Positions 18,636-23,811 of a DNA stretch of 64,000 bases are shown one piece after another. Location of the stretch: contig CAXSAZ010000019.1 in NCBI GenBank assembly GCA_964235485.1, forward strand, positions 8,984 to 72,983, in the 5' to 3' direction. Positions within the stretch are counted from its first letter, which is position 1. Each line of letters starts with the position of its first letter. The DNA comes from an uncultured Acetobacteraceae bacterium. GTDB taxonomy: Bacteria > Pseudomonadota > Alphaproteobacteria > Acetobacterales > Acetobacteraceae. The notes beneath the pieces were generated by a model. That model was not told the origin of the DNA. It saw only the letters and a program-made list of their open reading frames with translations, and did no database searches. The translations under genes and the position numbers were made by a program.

Positions 18636-18823
18636 AGGCGTTGCCCTGTGCCGGACCGGCCACGGGAAGCTTGGCGATCCCGGCGCCCCGTCCTGCCCAG
18701 CCGGGACGGCGGACTTCCGGGAAACCGGCCAGGGCGGAGGCGACGCTCGTGCGCATGGAAGCGGCGGACATGGCAGTTCTGATGTTGACAACCGCTGCAG
18801 GGAAACACGGCCGCCCCGTGCGG

Positions 18824-19114
18824 TCACGTTAGGTTTTGCCGGACCGGGTTGCCGTGATGCGTCCCCTGACGCACCCCGGCGCCGGGCACGGACGCGAACC
18901 TGACGCCAACCCCGGTTCCGTTCTCGTCAAGGAACTGCACGCCGCCCGCTTCCAGGGCGCGGCGGATCGCCGCGAGCGTCGTTTCGCGGGGCCGCACGGT
19001 CTCGTTCTCGATCATGTTCAGCGTCACGGCCGAAACGGCGGCGCGGTGCGCCAGGGTGGCTTGGGTCCATTTCAGCAACCCGCGAGCGGCGCGGATTTGG
19101 GCGGTGTTAATCAT
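18824..19114 (-). CDS. XRE-family helix-turn-helix regulator, divergent from the Y-RNA/rsr/rtcB operon
   Basis: QIRAARGLLKWTQATLAHRAAVSAVTLNMIE...IRRALEAGGVQF, typical alphaproteobacterial XRE protein. Confidence 0.9.
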   Translation of the reverse strand: MINTAQIRAARGLLKWTQATLAHRAAVSAVTLNMIENETVRPRETTLAAIRRALEAGGVQFLDENGTGVGVRFASVPGAGVRQGTHHGNPVRQNLT

Positions 19115-19132
19115 GGCCTCACAGCTTGGCAC

Positions 19133-19155
19133 AAACTTGAGAAAATCTAAAGTTT
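19133..19155. promoter_or_regulatory. Imperfect palindrome, candidate operator
   Basis: AAACTTGAGA-AAA-TCTAAAGTTT (9/10 inverted match), lying between the XRE start codon and the -35 box. Confidence 0.6.
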
Positions 19156-19159
19156 CTTG

Positions 19160-19188
19160 TTGACGTGCAGGAACAAGCGCGTGCATAT
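19160..19188 (+). promoter_or_regulatory. sigma70-type promoter for the Y-RNA array/rsr/rtcB
   Basis: TTGACG-17 nt-GCATAT; predicted start ~19195 coincides with the 5' end of the first RNA stem (19196). Confidence 0.7.
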
Positions 19189-19195
19189 CGCGCCA

Positions 19196-19263
19196 CCGAC
19201 GGGTCGGATGGGTTTGGGTTCTCTTGAAACGAACTCCCAAACCCGGGCATTGATGACCGTTGG
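19196..19263 (+). ncRNA. Y-RNA-like unit 1 (minimal hairpin)
   Basis: Terminal stem CCGACGG/CCGUUGG, then GGGUCGGA / AUGACC bulged-C helix; inner stem GGGUUUGGG/CCCAAACCC capped by GUUC-UCUUGAAAC-GAAC. Confidence 0.65.
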
Positions 19264-19270
19264 GGCTATG

Positions 19271-19374
19271 GCGCGGGCCGGAAGCCAAGGGTTATCCTCC
19301 AGACTGCCAGATGTGGACCGGGAGGTTCACAGCCTCGCAAGGGGCGGCACCCCCTTGGCAACATATGTCCGCGC
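19271..19374 (+). ncRNA. Y-RNA-like unit 2 (multi-hairpin internal domain)
   Basis: GCGCGGG/UCCGCGC stem; GGGCCGGA / AUGUCC module; GCCAAGGG/CCCUUGGC stem; internal CCUCC/GGAGG and GCCUC-GCAA-GGGGC hairpins. Confidence 0.72.
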
Positions 19375-19387
19375 AGCGTGCGTTGGC

Positions 19388-19504
19388 CCGGGCGGGCCGG
19401 AGTTCGACGGTTATCTGTCGTGGGTTCGAGTCCCATCGGCGCTGCAAGGCACCGTAGCTCAGCTTGGTAGAGCAATTGTCGTCGGCGATCCCATGACCGC
19501 CCGG
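19388..19504 (+). ncRNA. yrlA: YrlA-type Y RNA with circularly permuted tRNA-like domain
   Basis: CCGGGCGG/CCGCCCGG stem; GGGCCGGA / AUGACC module; CGACGGU/AUUGUCG stem; T arm GUGGG-UUCGAGU-CCCAU (19420-36), acceptor-like CGGCGCU-GCAA-GGCACCG (19437-54), D arm UA-GCUC-AGCUUGGUA-GAGC-A (19455-74); upstream of Ro60. Confidence 0.88.
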
Positions 19505-19528
19505 CTGGTGAACAGGAAGGAGGCTGGC

Positions 19529-19621
19529 ATGACGTTACCTGAACGACCGCAAAGCGCCGCGTGCGCCCGCGTCCGTCGATTTCGCCAGCCGAGTTTGCGG
19601 CCGATGCTGACCCACGCATGA
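19529..19621 (+). CDS. Candidate 30-aa small ORF within the RNA array
   Basis: AGGAAGGAGG (19514-23) 5 nt before ATG; MTLPERPQSAACARVRRFRQPSLRPMLTHA*. No homology recognised. Confidence 0.3.
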   Translation: MTLPERPQSAACARVRRFRQPSLRPMLTHA

Positions 19622-19641
19622 CATCCTATTCCGACATTCCT

Positions 19642-19743
19642 CCGGCGGGCCGGAGGCCGAGGGTTACCTGGTCTGCTGCCGGTTCAAGTCCGAAGGCGTC
19701 CGACCGGACGCCGTAGCACCCCTCGCCCACACATGCCCGCCGG
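19642..19743 (+). ncRNA. Y-RNA-like unit 4 (T loop + acceptor stem, D arm absent)
   Basis: CCGGCGGGC/GCCCGCCGG stem; GGGCCGGA / AUGCCC module; CGAGGG/CCCUCG stem; CGG-UUCAAGU-CCG T-like arm; GGCGUCC-GACC-GGACGCC; then UAGC. Confidence 0.78.
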
Positions 19744-19766
19744 GTCACTTCGACACGAGGCGGGCT

Positions 19767-21350
19767 ATGACCAGCCATCTGAACATCCTTTCGCGACGCG
19801 CCGCGGCGGCCACGGCCCAGGCGCTGCCGATCCCCGGCACCGTGCCGAACGCGGCGGGTGGGCACGCCTTTGCCGTCGATGATTGGGCGCGGCTCGACCG
19901 TTTCCTGATCCTCGGGTCGGAGGGCGGCAGCTACTACGCCGGCGAGCGTCCGCTCACGCGCGACAACGCCGCAGCGGTGCTGCGCGCGGTCGCGGCGGAT
20001 GGCCCCCGCGCCGTTGCGCGCATCGCCGCAATCAGCGAGGCCGGCCGCGCGCCGAAGAACGGCCCGGCCTTGTTCGCGCTCGCCCTGGCGGCGTCGGCCG
20101 ACGACCTCGCCACCCGGCGCGCGGCCCTCCTCGCCCTGCCGCGCGTGGCCCGGACCGGCACGCACCTGTTCGAGTTCGCCGGGTTCGTGGAAGGCACACG
20201 CGGCTGGGGCCGGGCGCTGCGCCGGGCGGTGGGGGCGTGGTACGGCAGCCAGCCCGTGGACCGGCTCGCCTACCAGGTGGTCAAGTATCGCCAGCGCGGC
20301 GGCTGGTCGCACCGCGACCTGCTGCGGCTCGCGCACCCGGAAACGGTTGAACCCGACCGTGCGGCGCTGCTCGACTGGGTGTGCCGCGGCACGGAGGGCG
20401 AGGCGCTGCCGACCCTGGCGCGCGCCGCATCGGCGCTTGGCCGGGCTGGCGCGGGGGCGGAAGCGGCGGCGCTGATCCGCGCGCACGACCTGCCGCGGGA
20501 GGCCGTGCCGACGGCGTTGCTGAACGACCCGGCGGTATGGGAGGCGCTGCTGGAGCGGATGCCGCTCACGGCGCTGGTGCGCTCGCTTGCCAAGCTGACC
20601 GTGGCTGGCGTGGTGAGGCCGCTCGGCGAGCGGCTGCCGCCCGTGCTGTCGGCGCTGGGCGACGTGGACCGCATCGCGCGGGCACGGCTGCACCCGCTGG
20701 CGATCCTGTTGGCGCTGCGCACCTACGCGGGGGGCCGGGGCGACCGCGGCGGCCTGCAATGGGAGCCGGTGCAGCCGGTGATCGACGCGCTGAACGCGGC
20801 CTTCTACACCGCGTTCGGGGCGGTCGAGCCGACGGGCAAGCGGCTGCTGCTGGCGCTCGACGTGTCGGGGTCGATGGCGGCGGGCCGTGTCGCCGGGTCG
20901 TCGCTGACGCCGCGCGAGGCGTCGGCGGCGATGGCGCTGATGACGGCGGCGACGGAGGCGAGCACCCATGTCATGGGCTTCGCCGACGCGCTCGTGCCGT
21001 TGTCGCTGTCGCCGTCCATGCGGCTGGACGACGCCGTGCGCGCCGTGTCGGGCCTGCCGTTCGGCGCCACGGACTGCGCGCAGCCGATGCTGTATGCGCT
21101 GGAGCGGGGCCTCTCGGTCGATGCCTTCGTGGTTTACACGGACAGCGAAACCTGGGCCGGGGCGATCCACCCGGCGCAGGCGCTGCGGCAATACCGCGAG
21201 CGGACCGGCATCGCCGCGAAGCTCGTGGTGGTGGGCCTGGTGTCGAACGGGTTCAGCATCGCCGACCCGGCCGACGCCGGCATGTTGGACGTGGTGGGCT
21301 TCGACGCAGCCGCGCCCGCCGTGATCGCCGACTTCATCCGCGCCCAGTGA
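19767..21350 (+). CDS. rsr: Ro60 ortholog (TROVE + vWA domains)
   Basis: PNAAGGHAF, RLDRFLILGSEGGSYY, VKYRQRGGWSHRDLLRLAHP, ALDVSGSM (MIDAS), TDCAQPM, YTDSETW, MLDVVGFD. Confidence 0.95.
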   Translation: MTSHLNILSRRAAAATAQALPIPGTVPNAAGGHAFAVDDWARLDRFLILGSEGGSYYAGERPLTRDNAAAVLRAVAADGPRAVARIAAISEAGRAPKNGPALFALALAASADDLATRRAALLALPRVARTGTHLFEFAGFVEGTRGWGRALRRAVGAWYGSQPVDRLAYQVVKYRQRGGWSHRDLLRLAHPETVEPDRAALLDWVCRGTEGEALPTLARAASALGRAGAGAEAAALIRAHDLPREAVPTALLNDPAVWEALLERMPLTALVRSLAKLTVAGVVRPLGERLPPVLSALGDVDRIARARLHPLAILLALRTYAGGRGDRGGLQWEPVQPVIDALNAAFYTAFGAVEPTGKRLLLALDVSGSMAAGRVAGSSLTPREASAAMALMTAATEASTHVMGFADALVPLSLSPSMRLDDAVRAVSGLPFGATDCAQPMLYALERGLSVDAFVVYTDSETWAGAIHPAQALRQYRERTGIAAKLVVVGLVSNGFSIADPADAGMLDVVGFDAAAPAVIADFIRAQ

Positions 21351-21354
21351 ACCA

Positions 21355-21385
21355 CTCCGGCAGCTTTCTGAAAGGGCTGCCGGAG
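21355..21385 (+). other. Strong intergenic hairpin between rsr and rtcB
   Basis: CTCCGGCAGC/GCTGCCGGAG 10-bp stem extended by wobble pairs; no U tract; followed by a GGAGG RBS for rtcB. Confidence 0.55.
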
Positions 21386-21420
21386 CACCTTTCCAAACGG
21401 CAACTCATAGGAGGACGACC

Positions 21421-23811
21421 ATGCGTCGCCCCAGCGCCTACGAGACCCGCGCCCGCGAGCTGGCCACCCTCGCCGGCATCGACCCCGACAGCCGCGTTTC
21501 CCGCCCCGGCGAAGCGCCCGGCGGCCGCGGGATGCCCGCCTGGTGCGCCTTCCGCGACGCCGCGCGGGCCGAGCACCTTCAAGCCGAGATCGCCGCCGTC
21601 GCCTTGCCCGAGCAGGCCGCCGCCTATCGGGATGCACCCCTGCAAGTGTTCGGCCCGCACGAGGATGCGACGCTTGCGCAGATGCGCAACTGCATGGGCG
21701 TGGGCCGTGTCGCGGCGGGCGTGGTGTGCGCGGACGGGCACCTCGGCTACGCGCAGCCCGTGGGCGGCGTGATCGCCTATGAGGGCCAGGTCAGCATCTC
21801 CGGCGTCGGCTTCGACATCGGTTGTTTCACTGGTGACACCCGCATCTTCACGCTGAACGGGCAGACCCCGACCCTTGCGGAGTGCGAAGGGCAATCGGTT
21901 TGGGTGCTGGCCTGTGATGCCAAGGGCAAGCCGGTGCCGGCGCAAGGCGTCTGCACACGAACCCGCCGCGATGCGGCGCTGGTGCGGGTCACGCTGGACA
22001 GCGGCAAGTCGATCCGCTGCACGCCCGATCATCTGTTCATGCTTCGGAACGGCACCTATCGGCGTGCGGATGCCCTGGCGCCCGGCCAGTCGCTGATGCC
22101 GCTCTACACGACGACGGACCGAGACGGCTACGTACTGGTCCGGAACAATCAAACCCGGCGCCTCATGCGGCTGCACTGGATGGTTCATCGCGCCGGGCTG
22201 ACCGATCCGGCCCCGGACCTTCAAGGTGACGAGTTGGTTCTGCATCACCGGAACTTCACCCCGGCTGACAACGACCCGCTGAACCTGCAGCCGCTGCGCA
22301 AGGTTGACCATGACGCCATGCACGCGCGGATGCGGGACCGGGCGCACTTCAACACTCCTGAGTTCCACGAGAACCGCATCGCCGCGATCAGAAGGTTCTG
22401 GATCGGCGCCCGCCGAGACGACGGCTTCATGGAGCGGCGCCGGAACACGGCGACGGCCAACATTACCGGCTACATGGAAGGGCGCCCCGAGGAGTTTCGT
22501 CATGCGATCAAGAACAACGGGCGGCGTGGCTCTTCGCATCTCCTCCGGTTCAACACTGACCCGAACACGATCCGCCGCAACCGCGAGCGTGCCAGGAGGC
22601 CGACGCCGTGTCCGCTGTGCAGCGTCGAAATGATCTCGACGTCCTCCCTTTATTACCACGCGAAGAAGGAACACGCCGAGACGCTTGCGGCGGGTCTGCG
22701 GGCGGGACGGCAGCGTGGCAAGAACAGCGTGGCTGAGCGGTTGGTGCTCGGCGCGAACAACCACAAGGTCATCTCCATCGAACCCGTGGCAGAGCAGGAA
22801 GACGTGTTTTGCTTGTCCGTGCCGGGGCTGAACAACTTCGCCCTCGCGGACGGGGTGTTCGTCCACAACTGCGGCAACATGGCGGTGCGGCTCGACACGC
22901 CGTATGCGGCGGTGGCGGACCGGGCGGGCGCGATCCTGGCCGACATCCGCCGGGCGGTGTCGTTCGGCGTGGGGCGCACGAACGCCGAACGGGCCGAGCA
23001 TCCCCTGTTCGACGACGAGGACGCTTGGCGTGACGCCGACATGACCGCCTACCGGCAGAAGGCAGCGGCGCAGCTCGGCACCGTGGGGTCGGGCAACCAT
23101 TACGTGGACTTGATGCGGGACGAGGCCGGCTTCGTGTGGATCGGCGTCCACTTCGGCAGCCGCGGCTTGGGGCACACCTCGGCCACCAAGTACCTGAAGC
23201 TCGCCGGCGGCCAGGACGGCATGAACGTGCCGCCCGCGGTGGTGGACGAGGACAGCGAGCTGGGCCGCCGCTACGTCGCGGCCATGGAACTGGCCGGCCG
23301 CTACGCTTATGCCGGGCGCGAATGGGTGGTGGAGCGCGTGCGCCGGATCATCGGCGGCGCGGTCACGGACAGCGTGCACAATCACCACAACTACGCTTGG
23401 CGGGAAACGCATAACGGGCGGAACTTGTGGGTGGTGCGCAAGGGCGCCACCCCCGCCTGGCCCGGCCAGCGCGGCTTCGTGGGCGGGTCCATGGGCGACG
23501 ACGCGGTGATCATCGAGGGCGTGGACAGCCCGGCCGCGCAGGCGGCGCTGTATTCCACGGTCCACGGCGCCGGGCGGCTGTTCGGGCGGCAGCAGGCCAA
23601 GCGGTTGTTCAAGCGTGAGCAGATGGACGCTTGGCTGCAGGAGCGCGGCGTGCTGCTGGCCGGGGGCGACCTGGACGAAAGCCCGATGGCCTACCGCCGC
23701 CTGCCGGACGTGGTGGCGCAGCACGCCGGCACGATCCAGGTGCAGCACAGCCTGCGCCCGTTCGCGGTGGCCATGGCCGGGGACGGCGAGTTCGACCCAT
23801 TCAAGGATTGA
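21421..23811 (+). CDS. rtcB: RtcB RNA ligase containing an intein (796-aa precursor, 447 aa spliced)
   Basis: ADGHLGY.QPVGGV, GFDIG|CGN, LGTVGSGNHY, HFGSRGLG, HNHHNYAW, VVRKGATPA, STVHGAGR, DESPMAYR. Confidence 0.95.
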   Translation: MRRPSAYETRARELATLAGIDPDSRVSRPGEAPGGRGMPAWCAFRDAARAEHLQAEIAAVALPEQAAAYRDAPLQVFGPHEDATLAQMRNCMGVGRVAAGVVCADGHLGYAQPVGGVIAYEGQVSISGVGFDIGCFTGDTRIFTLNGQTPTLAECEGQSVWVLACDAKGKPVPAQGVCTRTRRDAALVRVTLDSGKSIRCTPDHLFMLRNGTYRRADALAPGQSLMPLYTTTDRDGYVLVRNNQTRRLMRLHWMVHRAGLTDPAPDLQGDELVLHHRNFTPADNDPLNLQPLRKVDHDAMHARMRDRAHFNTPEFHENRIAAIRRFWIGARRDDGFMERRRNTATANITGYMEGRPEEFRHAIKNNGRRGSSHLLRFNTDPNTIRRNRERARRPTPCPLCSVEMISTSSLYYHAKKEHAETLAAGLRAGRQRGKNSVAERLVLGANNHKVISIEPVAEQEDVFCLSVPGLNNFALADGVFVHNCGNMAVRLDTPYAAVADRAGAILADIRRAVSFGVGRTNAERAEHPLFDDEDAWRDADMTAYRQKAAAQLGTVGSGNHYVDLMRDEAGFVWIGVHFGSRGLGHTSATKYLKLAGGQDGMNVPPAVVDEDSELGRRYVAAMELAGRYAYAGREWVVERVRRIIGGAVTDSVHNHHNYAWRETHNGRNLWVVRKGATPAWPGQRGFVGGSMGDDAVIIEGVDSPAAQAALYSTVHGAGRLFGRQQAKRLFKREQMDAWLQERGVLLAGGDLDESPMAYRRLPDVVAQHAGTIQVQHSLRPFAVAMAGDGEFDPFKD
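21823..22869 (+). mobile_element. Intein (349 aa) with HNH endonuclease domain and C2H2 zinc finger
   Basis: Starts CFTGDT; block B IRCTPDHLF; block F DVFCLSV..LNNFAL; ends VHN followed by Cys+1. Internal VLHHRNF..ADNDPLNL...DH...H and CPLC-x12-H-x4-H. Confidence 0.93.

Follow-up and report, generated by a model that had tools for sequence, protein, structure and literature searches.

The four stem-closed structures that stand in front of a Ro60 orthologue in this genome raise the question of whether they are RNAs that act together with the Ro60 protein, structured parts of its messenger, or both. The gene in question, rsr (19767..21350, + strand; 527 aa), matches Pfam vWA_Ro60 (5.8e-67) and TROVE (1.1e-39), and its product, Rsr, matches the PDB entries 1YVP (Ro60; 1.9e-122), 9NEN (4.6e-120) and 2NVO (Rsr; 1.3e-114). 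Y RNAs are well known in animals, where work on them has tied a UUAUC-type motif to DNA replication; to our knowledge, work on bacterial Y RNAs has been limited to three species and a small number of phages, with two described per species. The reading developed here, which we consider probable, is that positions 19196-19744 of the window (the whole 64-kb stretch of DNA that was analysed) are a row of four bacterial Y RNA genes whose products are partners of Rsr, and that the fourth unit also acts in cis on rsr.

The four units and their shared handle

Four stem-closed units were located in front of rsr, just where the preliminary description had placed them: U1 (19196..19263; CCGACGGGUCGGA ... 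GAUGACCGUUGG), U2 (19271..19374; GCGCGGGCCGGA ... AUGUCCGCGC), U3 (19388..19504; CCGGGCGGGCCGGA ... AUGACCGCCCGG) and U4 (19641..19744; UCCGGCGGGCCGGA ... AUGCCCGCCGGG), all on the + strand. A covariance model of the handle, termed R1, was used on the window and on rsr loci from other genomes and metagenomes. R1 scored U4 at 79.1 bits, U3 at 70.0, U2 at 66.1 and U1 at 34.5, with the next best match in the 64-kb window at 13.9 bits; the U1 match (E 3.4e-6) was found only with filters off. A strict descriptor, consisting of the handle motifs and a terminal stem of at least 5 bp, was run on both strands of the 64-kb window and matched U1, U3, U4 and only one other 5′ site. The four-unit pattern is far above chance expectation. 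Searches of the whole window with Rfam at gathering thresholds returned nothing, with no unit reaching the gathering score of any family, and ARAGORN listed neither a tRNA nor a tmRNA in the whole window. Folding of the single units against shuffled sequences showed a modest gain in stability (z of -2.2 to -2.9, with U3 at only -0.7), and the 601-nt precursor folded whole gave a z of -0.84, with U3 and U4 pairing non-locally. A fifth, decayed unit in the spacer between U3 and U4 (19505-19640) was considered and rejected, as this spacer has no R1 match, no excess structure and a conserved reading frame.

The handle has the same order in all four units, namely a terminal stem, the helix GGGYCGGA/AUGNCC, an upper stem and GGUUAYC; in its fuller form, GGGYC-CGGA(R) lies opposite A(U/C)G-N-CC and is followed by an upper stem of 5-8 bp and then by GGUUAYC. 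The bulged helix described at the outset is present, with the correction that position N of AUGNCC is not always paired, since the opposite G gives G-C, G-U or G.A. The motif after the upper stem reads GGUUAUC in U2 and U3, GGUUACC in U4 and GGUUCUC in U1, as had been stated. UUAYC was seen in 68 of 77 R1 matches outside the training clade, a count that is biased upward because R1 contains the motif. The Ro60 motif reads GCCGGA(A/G) in window units and GUCGGAU in U1, and the exact GCCGAAG is found in many relatives. The covariation suspected in the terminal stems proved genuine, as 87.8% of cells pair across 40 orthologous units, compared to 39-50% when the partners are slid. Double changes in these 40 units occur in 11 of the 19 handle pairs, and none of 500 shuffles came up to this level of pairing and change. 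Across 150 R1 matches, in an alignment that is fitted to the model, 90.9% of cells pair and all 19 handle pairs carry double changes. The terminal stems of U1 to U3 covary freely, without a third partner.

Building a handle model and scanning the surroundings of rsr with it, a check that had been proposed, detected 331 units next to rsr across 160 loci, and 324 of these share the strand of rsr. The genome loci contributed 190 matches, of which 183 are on the rsr strand and none lies within rsr, and in the metagenome loci all 141 matches are on the rsr strand. The 183 rsr-strand matches of the genome loci divide into 145 upstream and 38 downstream of rsr, and the downstream ones speak for free RNAs rather than for leader elements alone. 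Many phyla have units of 70-80 nt next to rsr. Among the first 80 genome loci, one unit was found in 18, two in 17, three in 15, four in 19 and five in 2, so that arrays of three to five units are present in 36 of the 80, across several phyla; unit numbers per locus are similar in the metagenome loci. A four-member array is, therefore, not the unusual arrangement for which it had been taken. In Sorangium (L058), tRNA genes are interleaved with the units, and in Solirubrobacter (L038) one directly precedes the first unit. As a positive control, R1 was run on Mycobacterium phage Alice and Gordonia phage Cashline and found two units upstream of their Ro genes; Y RNAs of mycobacteriophages have already been published.

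The array is preceded by a sigma-70-type promoter (19160..19188, + strand) with a -35 element TTGACG at 19160-19165, a 17-nt spacer and a -10 element GCATAT at 19183-19188. In 10 related genomes, TTGACG and GCATA are invariant and the spacer is variable, and the predicted transcription start falls at about the first base of U1. A consensus promoter scan did not list this pair and gave a weaker site at 19126-19153 instead. Divergent from the promoter lies an XRE-family HTH gene (18824..19114, - strand; Pfam HTH_3, 5.1e-8), a candidate regulator of the array promoter. Downstream of rsr, a gene for an RtcB RNA ligase with an intein (21421..23811, + strand; Pfam RtcB, 3e-60; Intein_splicing, 2.8e-19) appears to belong to the same operon, as no terminator-like site was found in 18800-21500. 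U1 to U4, rsr and rtcB are probably one transcription unit, read from the 19160-19188 promoter.

Internal domains and their relation to known Y RNAs

The internal domains of the four units had been described as four different ones, which is correct for the window, where U1 has a simple hairpin, U2 a two-hairpin junction, U3 a tRNA mimic and U4 a domain without a D arm. U1 combines the handle and its long upper stem with GGUUCUC and a small apical stem; among 19 orthologues, double changes occur in 5 of 17 pairs, and the apical stem shows C-G/A-U swaps that involve the A/C of GUU(A/C)UC. Of the two hairpins in the U2 junction, one has 7-8 bp and a GGGA loop and the other 5 bp and a GCAA loop; a T loop and a D loop are both absent. 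The structure predicted for U2 from a subclade of 8 sequences comprises 32 pairs, 8 of them with double changes; the domain differs in other relatives, and a MAFFT alignment of all U2 orthologues gave no clade-wide alignment of it. The U2 slot is filled by a tRNA-like unit in L014, L029 and L012. Since the similarity of the U2 internal domain to that of U3 or U4 is not significant in pairwise comparison within the window, any descent of U2 from a tRNA-like unit would have to be read from the content of its slot in relatives.

U3 is tRNA-like, with a T arm, an acceptor-like hairpin and a D arm, and in 30 U3-type sequences from several phyla, 20 of the 31 predicted pairs carry double changes. 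Part of U3 matches the Rfam model of tRNA-Sec at 23.6 bits (gathering score 47), and a cloverleaf with an anticodon arm was found in none of the units by the tRNA finder. U4 has a T-like hairpin and a 7-bp acceptor-like hairpin but no D arm. Across 19 orthologues its terminal stem is invariant, while its upper stem and the 7-bp hairpin show compensatory changes; the T-like hairpin is missing in L006 and L016. U4 and U3 have the T loop and the following GUAGC in common (T-loop match, p about 0.04), and from this resemblance U4 looks like a YrlA relative that lacks the D arm. The picture of four fixed, different adaptors is too tidy, since the domains of U2 and U4 vary among close relatives and the U2 slot is tRNA-like in some. 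This variation fits relaxed constraint as well as it fits specialisation.

Bacterial Y RNAs have been defined as discrete small RNAs, bound and stabilised by Rsr in vivo, that are encoded no more than a few kb from a Ro60 orthologue on the same strand and whose two ends pair in a long stem with a Ro60-binding motif of the GNCGAA(N)G or GGUCCGA-like type (Chen et al. 2014, PMC4201824); the four units share the position and the stem, and the GCCGGAG/GCCGAAG found here conforms to the motif. The closest known class for U3 is YrlA (RF02553), a tRNA-like RNA of Salmonella Typhimurium, Mycobacterium smegmatis and mycobacteriophages (PMC4201824; structure 10.1101/312249). YrlA also adjoins rsr on the same strand and has the GNCGAA(N)G stem, its arms come in the same order as those of U3, and its conserved post-stem YUAY corresponds to the UUAU/UUAC seen here. 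The Rfam YrlA search suggested earlier bore this out in part, as U3 aligns over the whole model (positions 1-114) with 44 bits and an E of 2.3e-8, below the gathering score of 69, while U1, U2 and U4 gave no match and the module order of YrlA is found in U3 only. Run at threshold on the window and on 14 other loci, the YrlA model detected none of the units. The array differs from YrlA in its handle, which is conserved on both strands here; in Salmonella and M. smegmatis, the 5′ strand alone can be recognised. It also differs in that a full tRNA-like domain is absent from U1, U2 and U4. U1 (68 nt, loop region UUCUCUU) shares the short hairpin shape of YrlB (Salmonella, M. smegmatis) and Yrn2 (Deinococcus radiodurans), a membership given by shape only, as Rfam holds no sequence model of YrlB.

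The D. radiodurans rsr locus, with a Yrn2-tRNA-Asp-Yrn1 polycistron and the small RNAs a, b and d upstream (Chen 2000/2014), resembles this one in having several small RNAs upstream of rsr on the same strand, made there from one precursor, and metazoan-like handles with both strands conserved; its RNAs a and b carry T arms only, like U4. It differs in that a canonical handle is present in two of five RNAs, compared to four of four here, and in that this array contains no tRNA gene. The likeness extends to animal Y RNAs and nematode stem-bulge RNAs (sbRNAs; RF01656; Kowalski and Krude 2015, PMC4726728). The sbRNA consensus consists of a lower stem, GGUC-CGGAG, an upper stem, GGGUUAUC ... CCC, the upper stem and CUUGACC, with UUAUC directly 3′ of the upper stem and with paralogues that combine one handle with different loops; here, the same position is occupied by GGUUAUC/GGUUACC in U2 to U4 and by GGUUCUC in U1. 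Against RF01656, U4 scored 27.4 bits (E 0.0029) and U2 15.2 bits, neither of which reaches the gathering score of 38, and a 72-nt Chloroflexota unit of the U1 type passed it with 42.9 bits. RF00019 (Y_RNA) gave no match at E ≤10 in the window units. The units here differ from the animal RNAs in being bacterial and operon-encoded, without Pol III signals or a U tail, and bacterial Y RNAs have been called 'not homologous' with the vertebrate clades (PMC4726728). In Thermus phage phiLo, a Ro60 gene is preceded by Yrl1 and Yrl2, two RNAs of stem-bulge-stem form that contain a CGAA motif, and CGAA-dependent binding of the phage Ro60 to the Yrl RNAs was shown by EMSA (PMC12135203). That system differs in being a phage with two units and a more divergent Ro60; phiLo was not retrieved by tblastn with this Rsr, and the likeness is drawn from its description. 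These comparisons place U3 in the YrlA class and U1 in the short hairpin class, YrlB/Yrn2-like, with U2 and U4 as lineage-specific members with junction domains.

The leader between U3 and rsr

The spacer between U3 and U4 holds a Shine-Dalgarno sequence, AAGGAGG (19517-19523, + strand), before a small Arg-rich ORF of 30 aa (ORF 1; ATG at 19529, TGA at 19619-19621, + strand) whose frame is conserved. In 20 of 20 genome loci, an SD-linked start lies in frame with an invariant GCA-TGA, and this frame runs for 27-36 codons without a stop, whereas stops occur in the other frames. Of 20 metagenome loci, 17 also have ORF 1. Its Arg codons are CGA in 35% of cases, compared to 3% in rsr and rtcB together, and a CGA-CCN pair is conserved. 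The spacer that holds ORF 1 shows no excess RNA structure (z +1.33), and the small peptide, searched in three versions against Pfam and NCBIfam, matched no family. The ATG of a candidate ORF 2 (19618..19716, + strand; stop TAG at 19714-19716) overlaps the ORF 1 stop as AUGA, and its frame runs through the 5′ half of U4. This ATG is part of the invariant GCATGA. Its distance to U4 is exactly 21 nt in 34 of 34 loci and 24 nt in three others, and the spacer between them is variable in sequence with no other indels; translation of ORF 2 can be inferred from this arrangement. A role of GCAUGAC as the 3′ strand of a handle was rejected, as it does not fit CAUGNCC in relatives.

The translation start region of rsr (GAGGCGGGCUAUG; 19757..19769, + strand) contains GGCGGGC (19759-19765), a copy of the 5′ strand of the U4 stem, which can pair with the U4 3′ strand GCCCGCC (19735-19741). 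In about 45 loci, the start region is invariant save for C-to-T changes that preserve G-U pairs; the loop between the U4 3′ strand and this copy is variable, at 12-21 nt, and 12 nt separate the end of U4 from the rsr SD. Two pairings would thus be mutually exclusive: with the U4 3′ strand paired to its own 5′ strand, the Y fold would form and the rsr start would be free, and with the same strand paired to the copy over the rsr start codon, the start site would be closed. The predicted fold of the start-site hairpin by itself has -20.7 kcal/mol. Of 36 loci, 12 have the Y fold as their minimum-energy structure and 24 the start-site hairpin, and with the 5′ 40 nt blocked, the start-site hairpin formed in 34 of 36. 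These constraints on U4 point to a role in cis. Overlapping a candidate ORF and abutting the rsr start as it does, U4 may never exist as a free RNA.

Translational attenuation by leader peptides is known from the erm and cat leaders and from the leaders of amino-acid operons. The layout before rsr resembles such leaders in two ways: its short SD-driven ORF is enriched in one rare codon, CGA for Arg, and the pairings that come after this ORF exclude each other, one of them covering the start site of the downstream gene. It differs in that a complete Ro60-type handle supplies the anti-sequestering strand, as its own 5′ strand, and that a second ORF would restart at AUGA and enter this handle. 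We put forward as a tentative and, on balance, doubtful proposal that U4 is the sensor arm of a translation-coupled switch of rsr and rtcB, a prediction from sequence, which would sense RNA damage and replace the RtcR/sigma-54 control of enterobacteria. With normal decoding, ribosomes would finish the CGA-rich leader peptide, restart at AUGA and read through the U4 5′ strand; the U4 handle would be unfolded by the ORF 2 ribosomes, and the GCCCGCC freed in this way would close GGCGGGC-N-AUG. With failed decoding, caused for example by damaged tRNA-Arg or damaged ribosomes, no restart would take place, so that U4 would take up the Y fold, which Rsr might clamp, and translation of rsr would go ahead.

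Trans-acting RNAs, structured leader, or both

The identity of the units as Y RNAs, proposed earlier, is supported by four Ro60-type handles beside a same-strand Ro60 orthologue and by the tRNA mimic in U3. By homology with Deinococcus, Salmonella and Mycobacterium, Rsr would bind each handle, and nucleases would trim the precursor back to the protected stems, leaving four stable RNAs that would gate the Rsr ring and tether Rsr to partners such as PNPase. That one Ro60 may be programmed with interchangeable adaptor RNAs is the already published view of Y RNAs.

A GC-rich genome forms stems easily, and the modest z-scores of the single folds could be those of chance hairpins, tRNA pseudogenes or repeats unrelated to Rsr; such an origin is refuted for practical purposes by the near-complete bias of the R1 matches in the 160 loci to the rsr strand, their absence from inside rsr, the compensatory changes in every handle pair, and the lack of any further copy in the 64-kb window, where ARAGORN found no tRNA. 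Another possibility is that only U3, and perhaps U1, works, with U2 and U4 being decaying tRNA-like duplicates that keep the handle by descent and have no function. The differences in length and sequence of the U2 and U4 internal domains among close relatives, the two loci without the U4 T-like hairpin, the three with a tRNA-like unit in the U2 slot and the T loop and GUAGC that U4 has in common with U3 are what such decay would leave. The handle, however, should be lost first in decaying copies, and the handles of U2 and U4 score as high as or above that of U3; moreover, nearly all of about 40 related loci retain both units, with compensatory changes in their internal hairpins, and we regard this explanation as very improbable.

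A different case can be made that the units work mainly in cis, as a 550-nt structured 5′ leader of the rsr-rtcB mRNA in which the handles serve as Rsr operators or folding switches for autoregulation, with no trans-acting Y RNAs. A single promoter before U1, the absence of terminator-like sites in 18800-21500 and the small ORFs embedded in the leader all fit this arrangement, as do the closeness of U4 to the rsr SD, its invariant stem, the copy of that stem over the rsr start and the nearly equal energies of the Y fold and the start-site hairpin. Against it, other lineages have their units downstream of rsr or hundreds of bases away, some among tRNA genes, the U1 to U3 terminal stems have no third partner to constrain them, and operon-derived Y RNAs are stable and bound by Rsr in every bacterium studied. 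We think it rather unlikely as an account of the whole array. For U4 the cis and trans readings are compatible, and the preferred reading, a row of four Y RNA genes with U4 also acting on rsr, includes both.

From the comparison of about 160 loci, arrays of three to five units emerge as the usual arrangement in many phyla, with one handle, including its UUAUC-type motif, serving all of them. The handle model is a usable annotation tool, having recovered units that the Rfam YrlA model missed in the window and in 14 other loci, and RNAs with one handle and different heads are a natural set in which Ro60 biologists can look for the binding partners of each head. If the leader switch is true, it would give an RNA-repair operon a novel means of sensing damage and would be the first case of a Y RNA fold serving as a cis regulatory element.

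The rsr locus and its four units

The window, from an Acetobacteraceae-like bacterium found in lichen metagenomes, carries on its forward strand the gene rsr (19767-21350), whose product matched Pfam vWA_Ro60 (5.8e-67) and TROVE (1.1e-39) as well as the solved structures of Xenopus Ro60 (1YVP, 1.9e-122), human RO60 (9NEN, 4.6e-120), and Deinococcus Rsr (2NVO, 1.3e-114), and which by these matches is an unambiguous Ro60 orthologue. An intein-containing rtcB follows on the same strand (21421-23811), and no rtcR-like activator was evident adjoining the rsr-rtcB operon. The 70-nt gap between the two genes holds a perfect 10-bp stem-loop (CUCCGGCAGC ... GCUGCCGGAG, 21355-21389) without a U tract, followed by the SD of rtcB. 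Ahead of rsr lie four stem-closed units on the forward strand, U1 (19196-19263), U2 (19271-19374), U3 (19388-19504), and U4 (19641-19744), preceded by a promoter-like hexamer pair (forward strand, from 19160) and, upstream of that, by a divergent XRE-type gene (18824-19114, reverse strand). Between the XRE-type gene and U1 (19115-19195), TAAAGTTT, TTGACG, and GCATA are invariant in ten genomes, a pattern that fits a putative shared operator-promoter.

Each unit was built as the preliminary description had it, with a GC-rich stem leading into GGG(C/U)CGGA and a 3′ end formed by AUG-N-CC and the opposite stem strand, and the motif after the second stem also read as claimed, being GGUUAUC in U2 and U3, GGUUACC in U4, and GGUUCUC in U1. 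A strict descriptor matched U1, U3, U4, and one unrelated 5′ site in 128 kb (both strands), with U2 falling just below the cut-off because its outer stem has 4 bp. Folding of single units recovered the closing stems, with z scores of -2.2 to -2.9, but -0.7 for U3.

Relatives of Rsr were collected at one genome per species (80 loci). Among them, ten loci with Rsr identities of 80-92% were alignable over the entire upstream region and had all four units, and the resulting 40 units were aligned on their ends over the handle, the common and predicted Ro60-docking part, in a structure of 19 pairs. Paired cells made up 87.8% of this alignment compared to 39-50% for slid partners, both-sided changes occurred in 11 of the 19 pairs, and none of 500 shuffles came up to the real alignment in paired cells, double changes, or covariation score, bearing out the covariation of the terminal stems that had been proposed from the one sequence. 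R1, a covariance model made from the same alignment, scored U4 at 79.1 bits, U3 at 70.0, U2 at 66.1, and U1 at 34.5 (filters off), while the best match elsewhere in the window reached 13.9 bits. Over the best 150 R1 matches, in an alignment fitted to the model, 90.9% of handle cells were paired and all 19 pairs had double changes.

No Rfam family matched in the window at gathering thresholds, and ARAGORN found no tRNA there. U3 matched Rfam YrlA along the whole length of the model with 44 bits (E 2.3e-8; threshold 69), and at threshold level this model detected no unit in the window or in 14 other loci; U4 and U2 gave weak matches to RF01656, the nematode stem-bulge RNAs, which represent Y RNAs in worms. 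In a Chloroflexota MAG (locus L032, 4677-4742), a hairpin unit of 72 nt just 3′ of rsr scored 42.9 bits for RF01656, where the curated threshold is 38; the observation also covers loci L030 and L033.

Frequency of rows among rsr loci

In the 80 genome loci, R1 gave 190 matches at E <=0.1, of which 183 shared the strand of rsr; none of these fell inside the gene, and they divided into 145 upstream and 38 downstream. Eight loci had no match; of the other 72, one had no unit on the rsr strand, 18 had one, 17 two, 15 three, 19 four, and two had five. Rows of four or five occurred far outside the clade of the window, in an unrelated alphaproteobacterium (L025, five units) and L042, and likewise in Arachnia propionica (L069 and L072), a Propionibacteriaceae MAG (L080), Abditibacteriaceae (L021), Dormiibacterota (L023), and Aggregatilineales (L031). 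Eighty metagenome loci, taken as an independent set, yielded 141 matches, all 141 on the rsr strand, again with numerous rows of four or five. The four-member array had been described as unprecedented, a view not upheld by the recurrence of such rows across these 160 loci and several lineages; the array is real, but its count of four is ordinary.

Mycobacterium phage Alice and Gordonia phage Cashline served as positive controls, and here R1 placed two units ahead of the Ro genes; mycobacteriophage YrlA-like RNAs have already been published. Both Y-like units of Alice (L081, 2136-2392) are overlapped by genes annotated as hypothetical proteins, gp218 and gp219, which are probably miscalled coding genes. 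Five-unit rows were seen at L012 (2077-2977), L025 (2279-2873), L096 (382-1147), L114 (367-1128), and L127 (103-1183), with three tRNA-like units each in L012 and L025, and close relatives differed in the number and type of units via duplication and loss. Runs of tRNA genes flank rsr in Sorangium cellulosum So ce26 (L058, 2158-2727 and 4939-5568), with Y-like units interleaved, and in Solirubrobacter a tRNA gene stands immediately before the first Y unit (L038, 455-529), a mixing that resembles the Deinococcus Yrn2-tRNA-Asp-Yrn1 precursor.

Heads of the units and the leader around U4

The four labels first given to the heads, the internal domains above the handle, were fair for the window genome, but the heads of U2 and U4 proved evolutionarily fluid among relatives. 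U1 is a plain hairpin whose upper stem and small apical stem are kept in 19 orthologues, the A/C difference in its GUU(A/C)UC being offset by U/G on the opposite side. The fold of U2 is a junction of a 7-8-bp hairpin with a GGGA loop and a 5-bp hairpin with a GCAA loop, in which 8 of 32 pairs covary within a subclade (n = 8); in other relatives the head is different and not alignable, and in L014, L029, and L012 the slot is taken by a second or third tRNA-like unit. For U3, the T arm, acceptor-like hairpin, D arm, and both handle helices were all predicted across 30 sequences from several phyla, with compensatory changes in 20 of 31 pairs, so that a tRNA-like domain is very well supported by comparative sequence. 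The T-like hairpin of U4, weak in the window, shows clearly in relatives, and is followed by a 7-bp hairpin with compensatory changes and by GUAGC, the sequence with which the D arm of U3 opens, although U4 itself lacks a D arm; in L006 and L016 the T-like hairpin is missing as well.

Among 19 orthologues the terminal stem of U4 (CCGGCGGGC/GCCCGCCGG) does not vary, in contrast to U1-U3, whose stems covary. All ~45 related loci have GAGGCGGGC-N-AUG at the rsr start, and GGCGGGC over the rsr start (19759-19765) repeats the 5′ strand of U4 and can pair with its 3′ strand (19735-19741), likewise invariant in ~45 loci, across a loop of 12-21 nt that is freely variable. Inside this box the sole substitution seen is C to T, facing a G (~45 loci), and in two loci the SD of rsr is gone and the box retained. 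When U4 and the leader were folded together in 36 loci, 24 adopted the start-site hairpin and 12 the Y fold, and the hairpin count rose to 34 of 36 when the first 40 nt of U4 were blocked, indicating two mutually exclusive structures of near-equal energy.

The spacer of 134 nt ahead of U4 showed no structure by folding (z +1.33). A small ORF with SD AAGGAGG lies between U3 and U4 on the forward strand (19517-19621; ATG 19529, TGA 19619-19621; 30 aa). Its frame runs to an invariant GCA-UGA, an arrangement shared by all 20 genome loci and by 17 of 20 metagenome loci, with seven different lengths (27-36 codons) among them. Its peptide, which had no Pfam or NCBIfam match, is 16% Arg, the rare codon CGA accounts for 35% of Arg codons compared to 3% in rsr and rtcB, and an Arg-Pro near codon 6 is conserved, encoded as CGA-CCN in 20 of 23 cases. 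Despite the GC-rich genome, the Ala codon GCA never varies in its A, which creates an AUG overlapping the stop (AUGA). From this AUG to U4 the distance is exactly 21 nt in 34 loci and 24 nt in three side-branch loci, across a spacer of variable sequence. The AUG, within an invariant GCATGA (region 19616-19716, forward strand), opens a candidate restart frame that reads through the 5′ strand of U4 to a TAG inside the unit (19714-19716). Together, the stem copy, the two alternative folds, and the small ORFs look like a translation-coupled switch on rsr; in its full form, in which restarting ribosomes would unfold U4 and so close the rsr start, we hold this reading to be rather unlikely.

Relation to described Y RNAs

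Bacterial Y RNAs adjoin rsr on the same strand, with GNCGAA(N)G close to their 5′ ends (Chen et al. 2014, PMC4201824). The three species studied have at least two each, one tRNA-like and one hairpin; in D. radiodurans one precursor gives Yrn2, tRNA-Asp, and Yrn1, with three more small RNAs upstream of rsr, and further Y RNAs "remain to be found" (PMC4201824). Each is viewed as a Ro60-binding stem joined to an effector-binding module (10.1101/312249), and a phage Ro60 binds two upstream Y-like RNAs via a CGAA motif (PMC12135203). Because both of these were already published, the proposal that one Ro60 uses interchangeable adaptor RNAs is the standing model and not new; it is the textbook view, which may apply to the window units.

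Three points were not found spelled out in the bacterial Y RNA literature compared: the frequency of rows of three to five; GGUUAYC directly 3′ of the upper stem, shared throughout a row by tRNA-like and other units alike; and the failure of Rfam YrlA to detect these units at threshold while a Chloroflexota unit passes the sbRNA threshold. Chen et al. (2014, PMC4201824) placed the conserved YUAY of YrlA in the variable loop of its tRNA-like part, whereas the equivalent motif here goes with the handle. It occupies the place that UUAUC, a motif linked to DNA replication in vitro, has in animal Y RNAs and sbRNAs. UUAYC was present in 68 of 77 R1 matches outside the training clade, a count biased upward since R1 contains the motif.

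The original observation of four units ahead of rsr is thus confirmed by a shared covarying handle, by R1 matches, and by a Ro60 orthologue on the same strand. U1-U4 are probably bacterial Y RNA genes in the full sense, and we are more confident still that they are Ro60-type handle RNAs linked to rsr. The locus exemplifies, in well-conserved form, an arrangement that is under-annotated, and it has an unexpected candidate regulatory leader.
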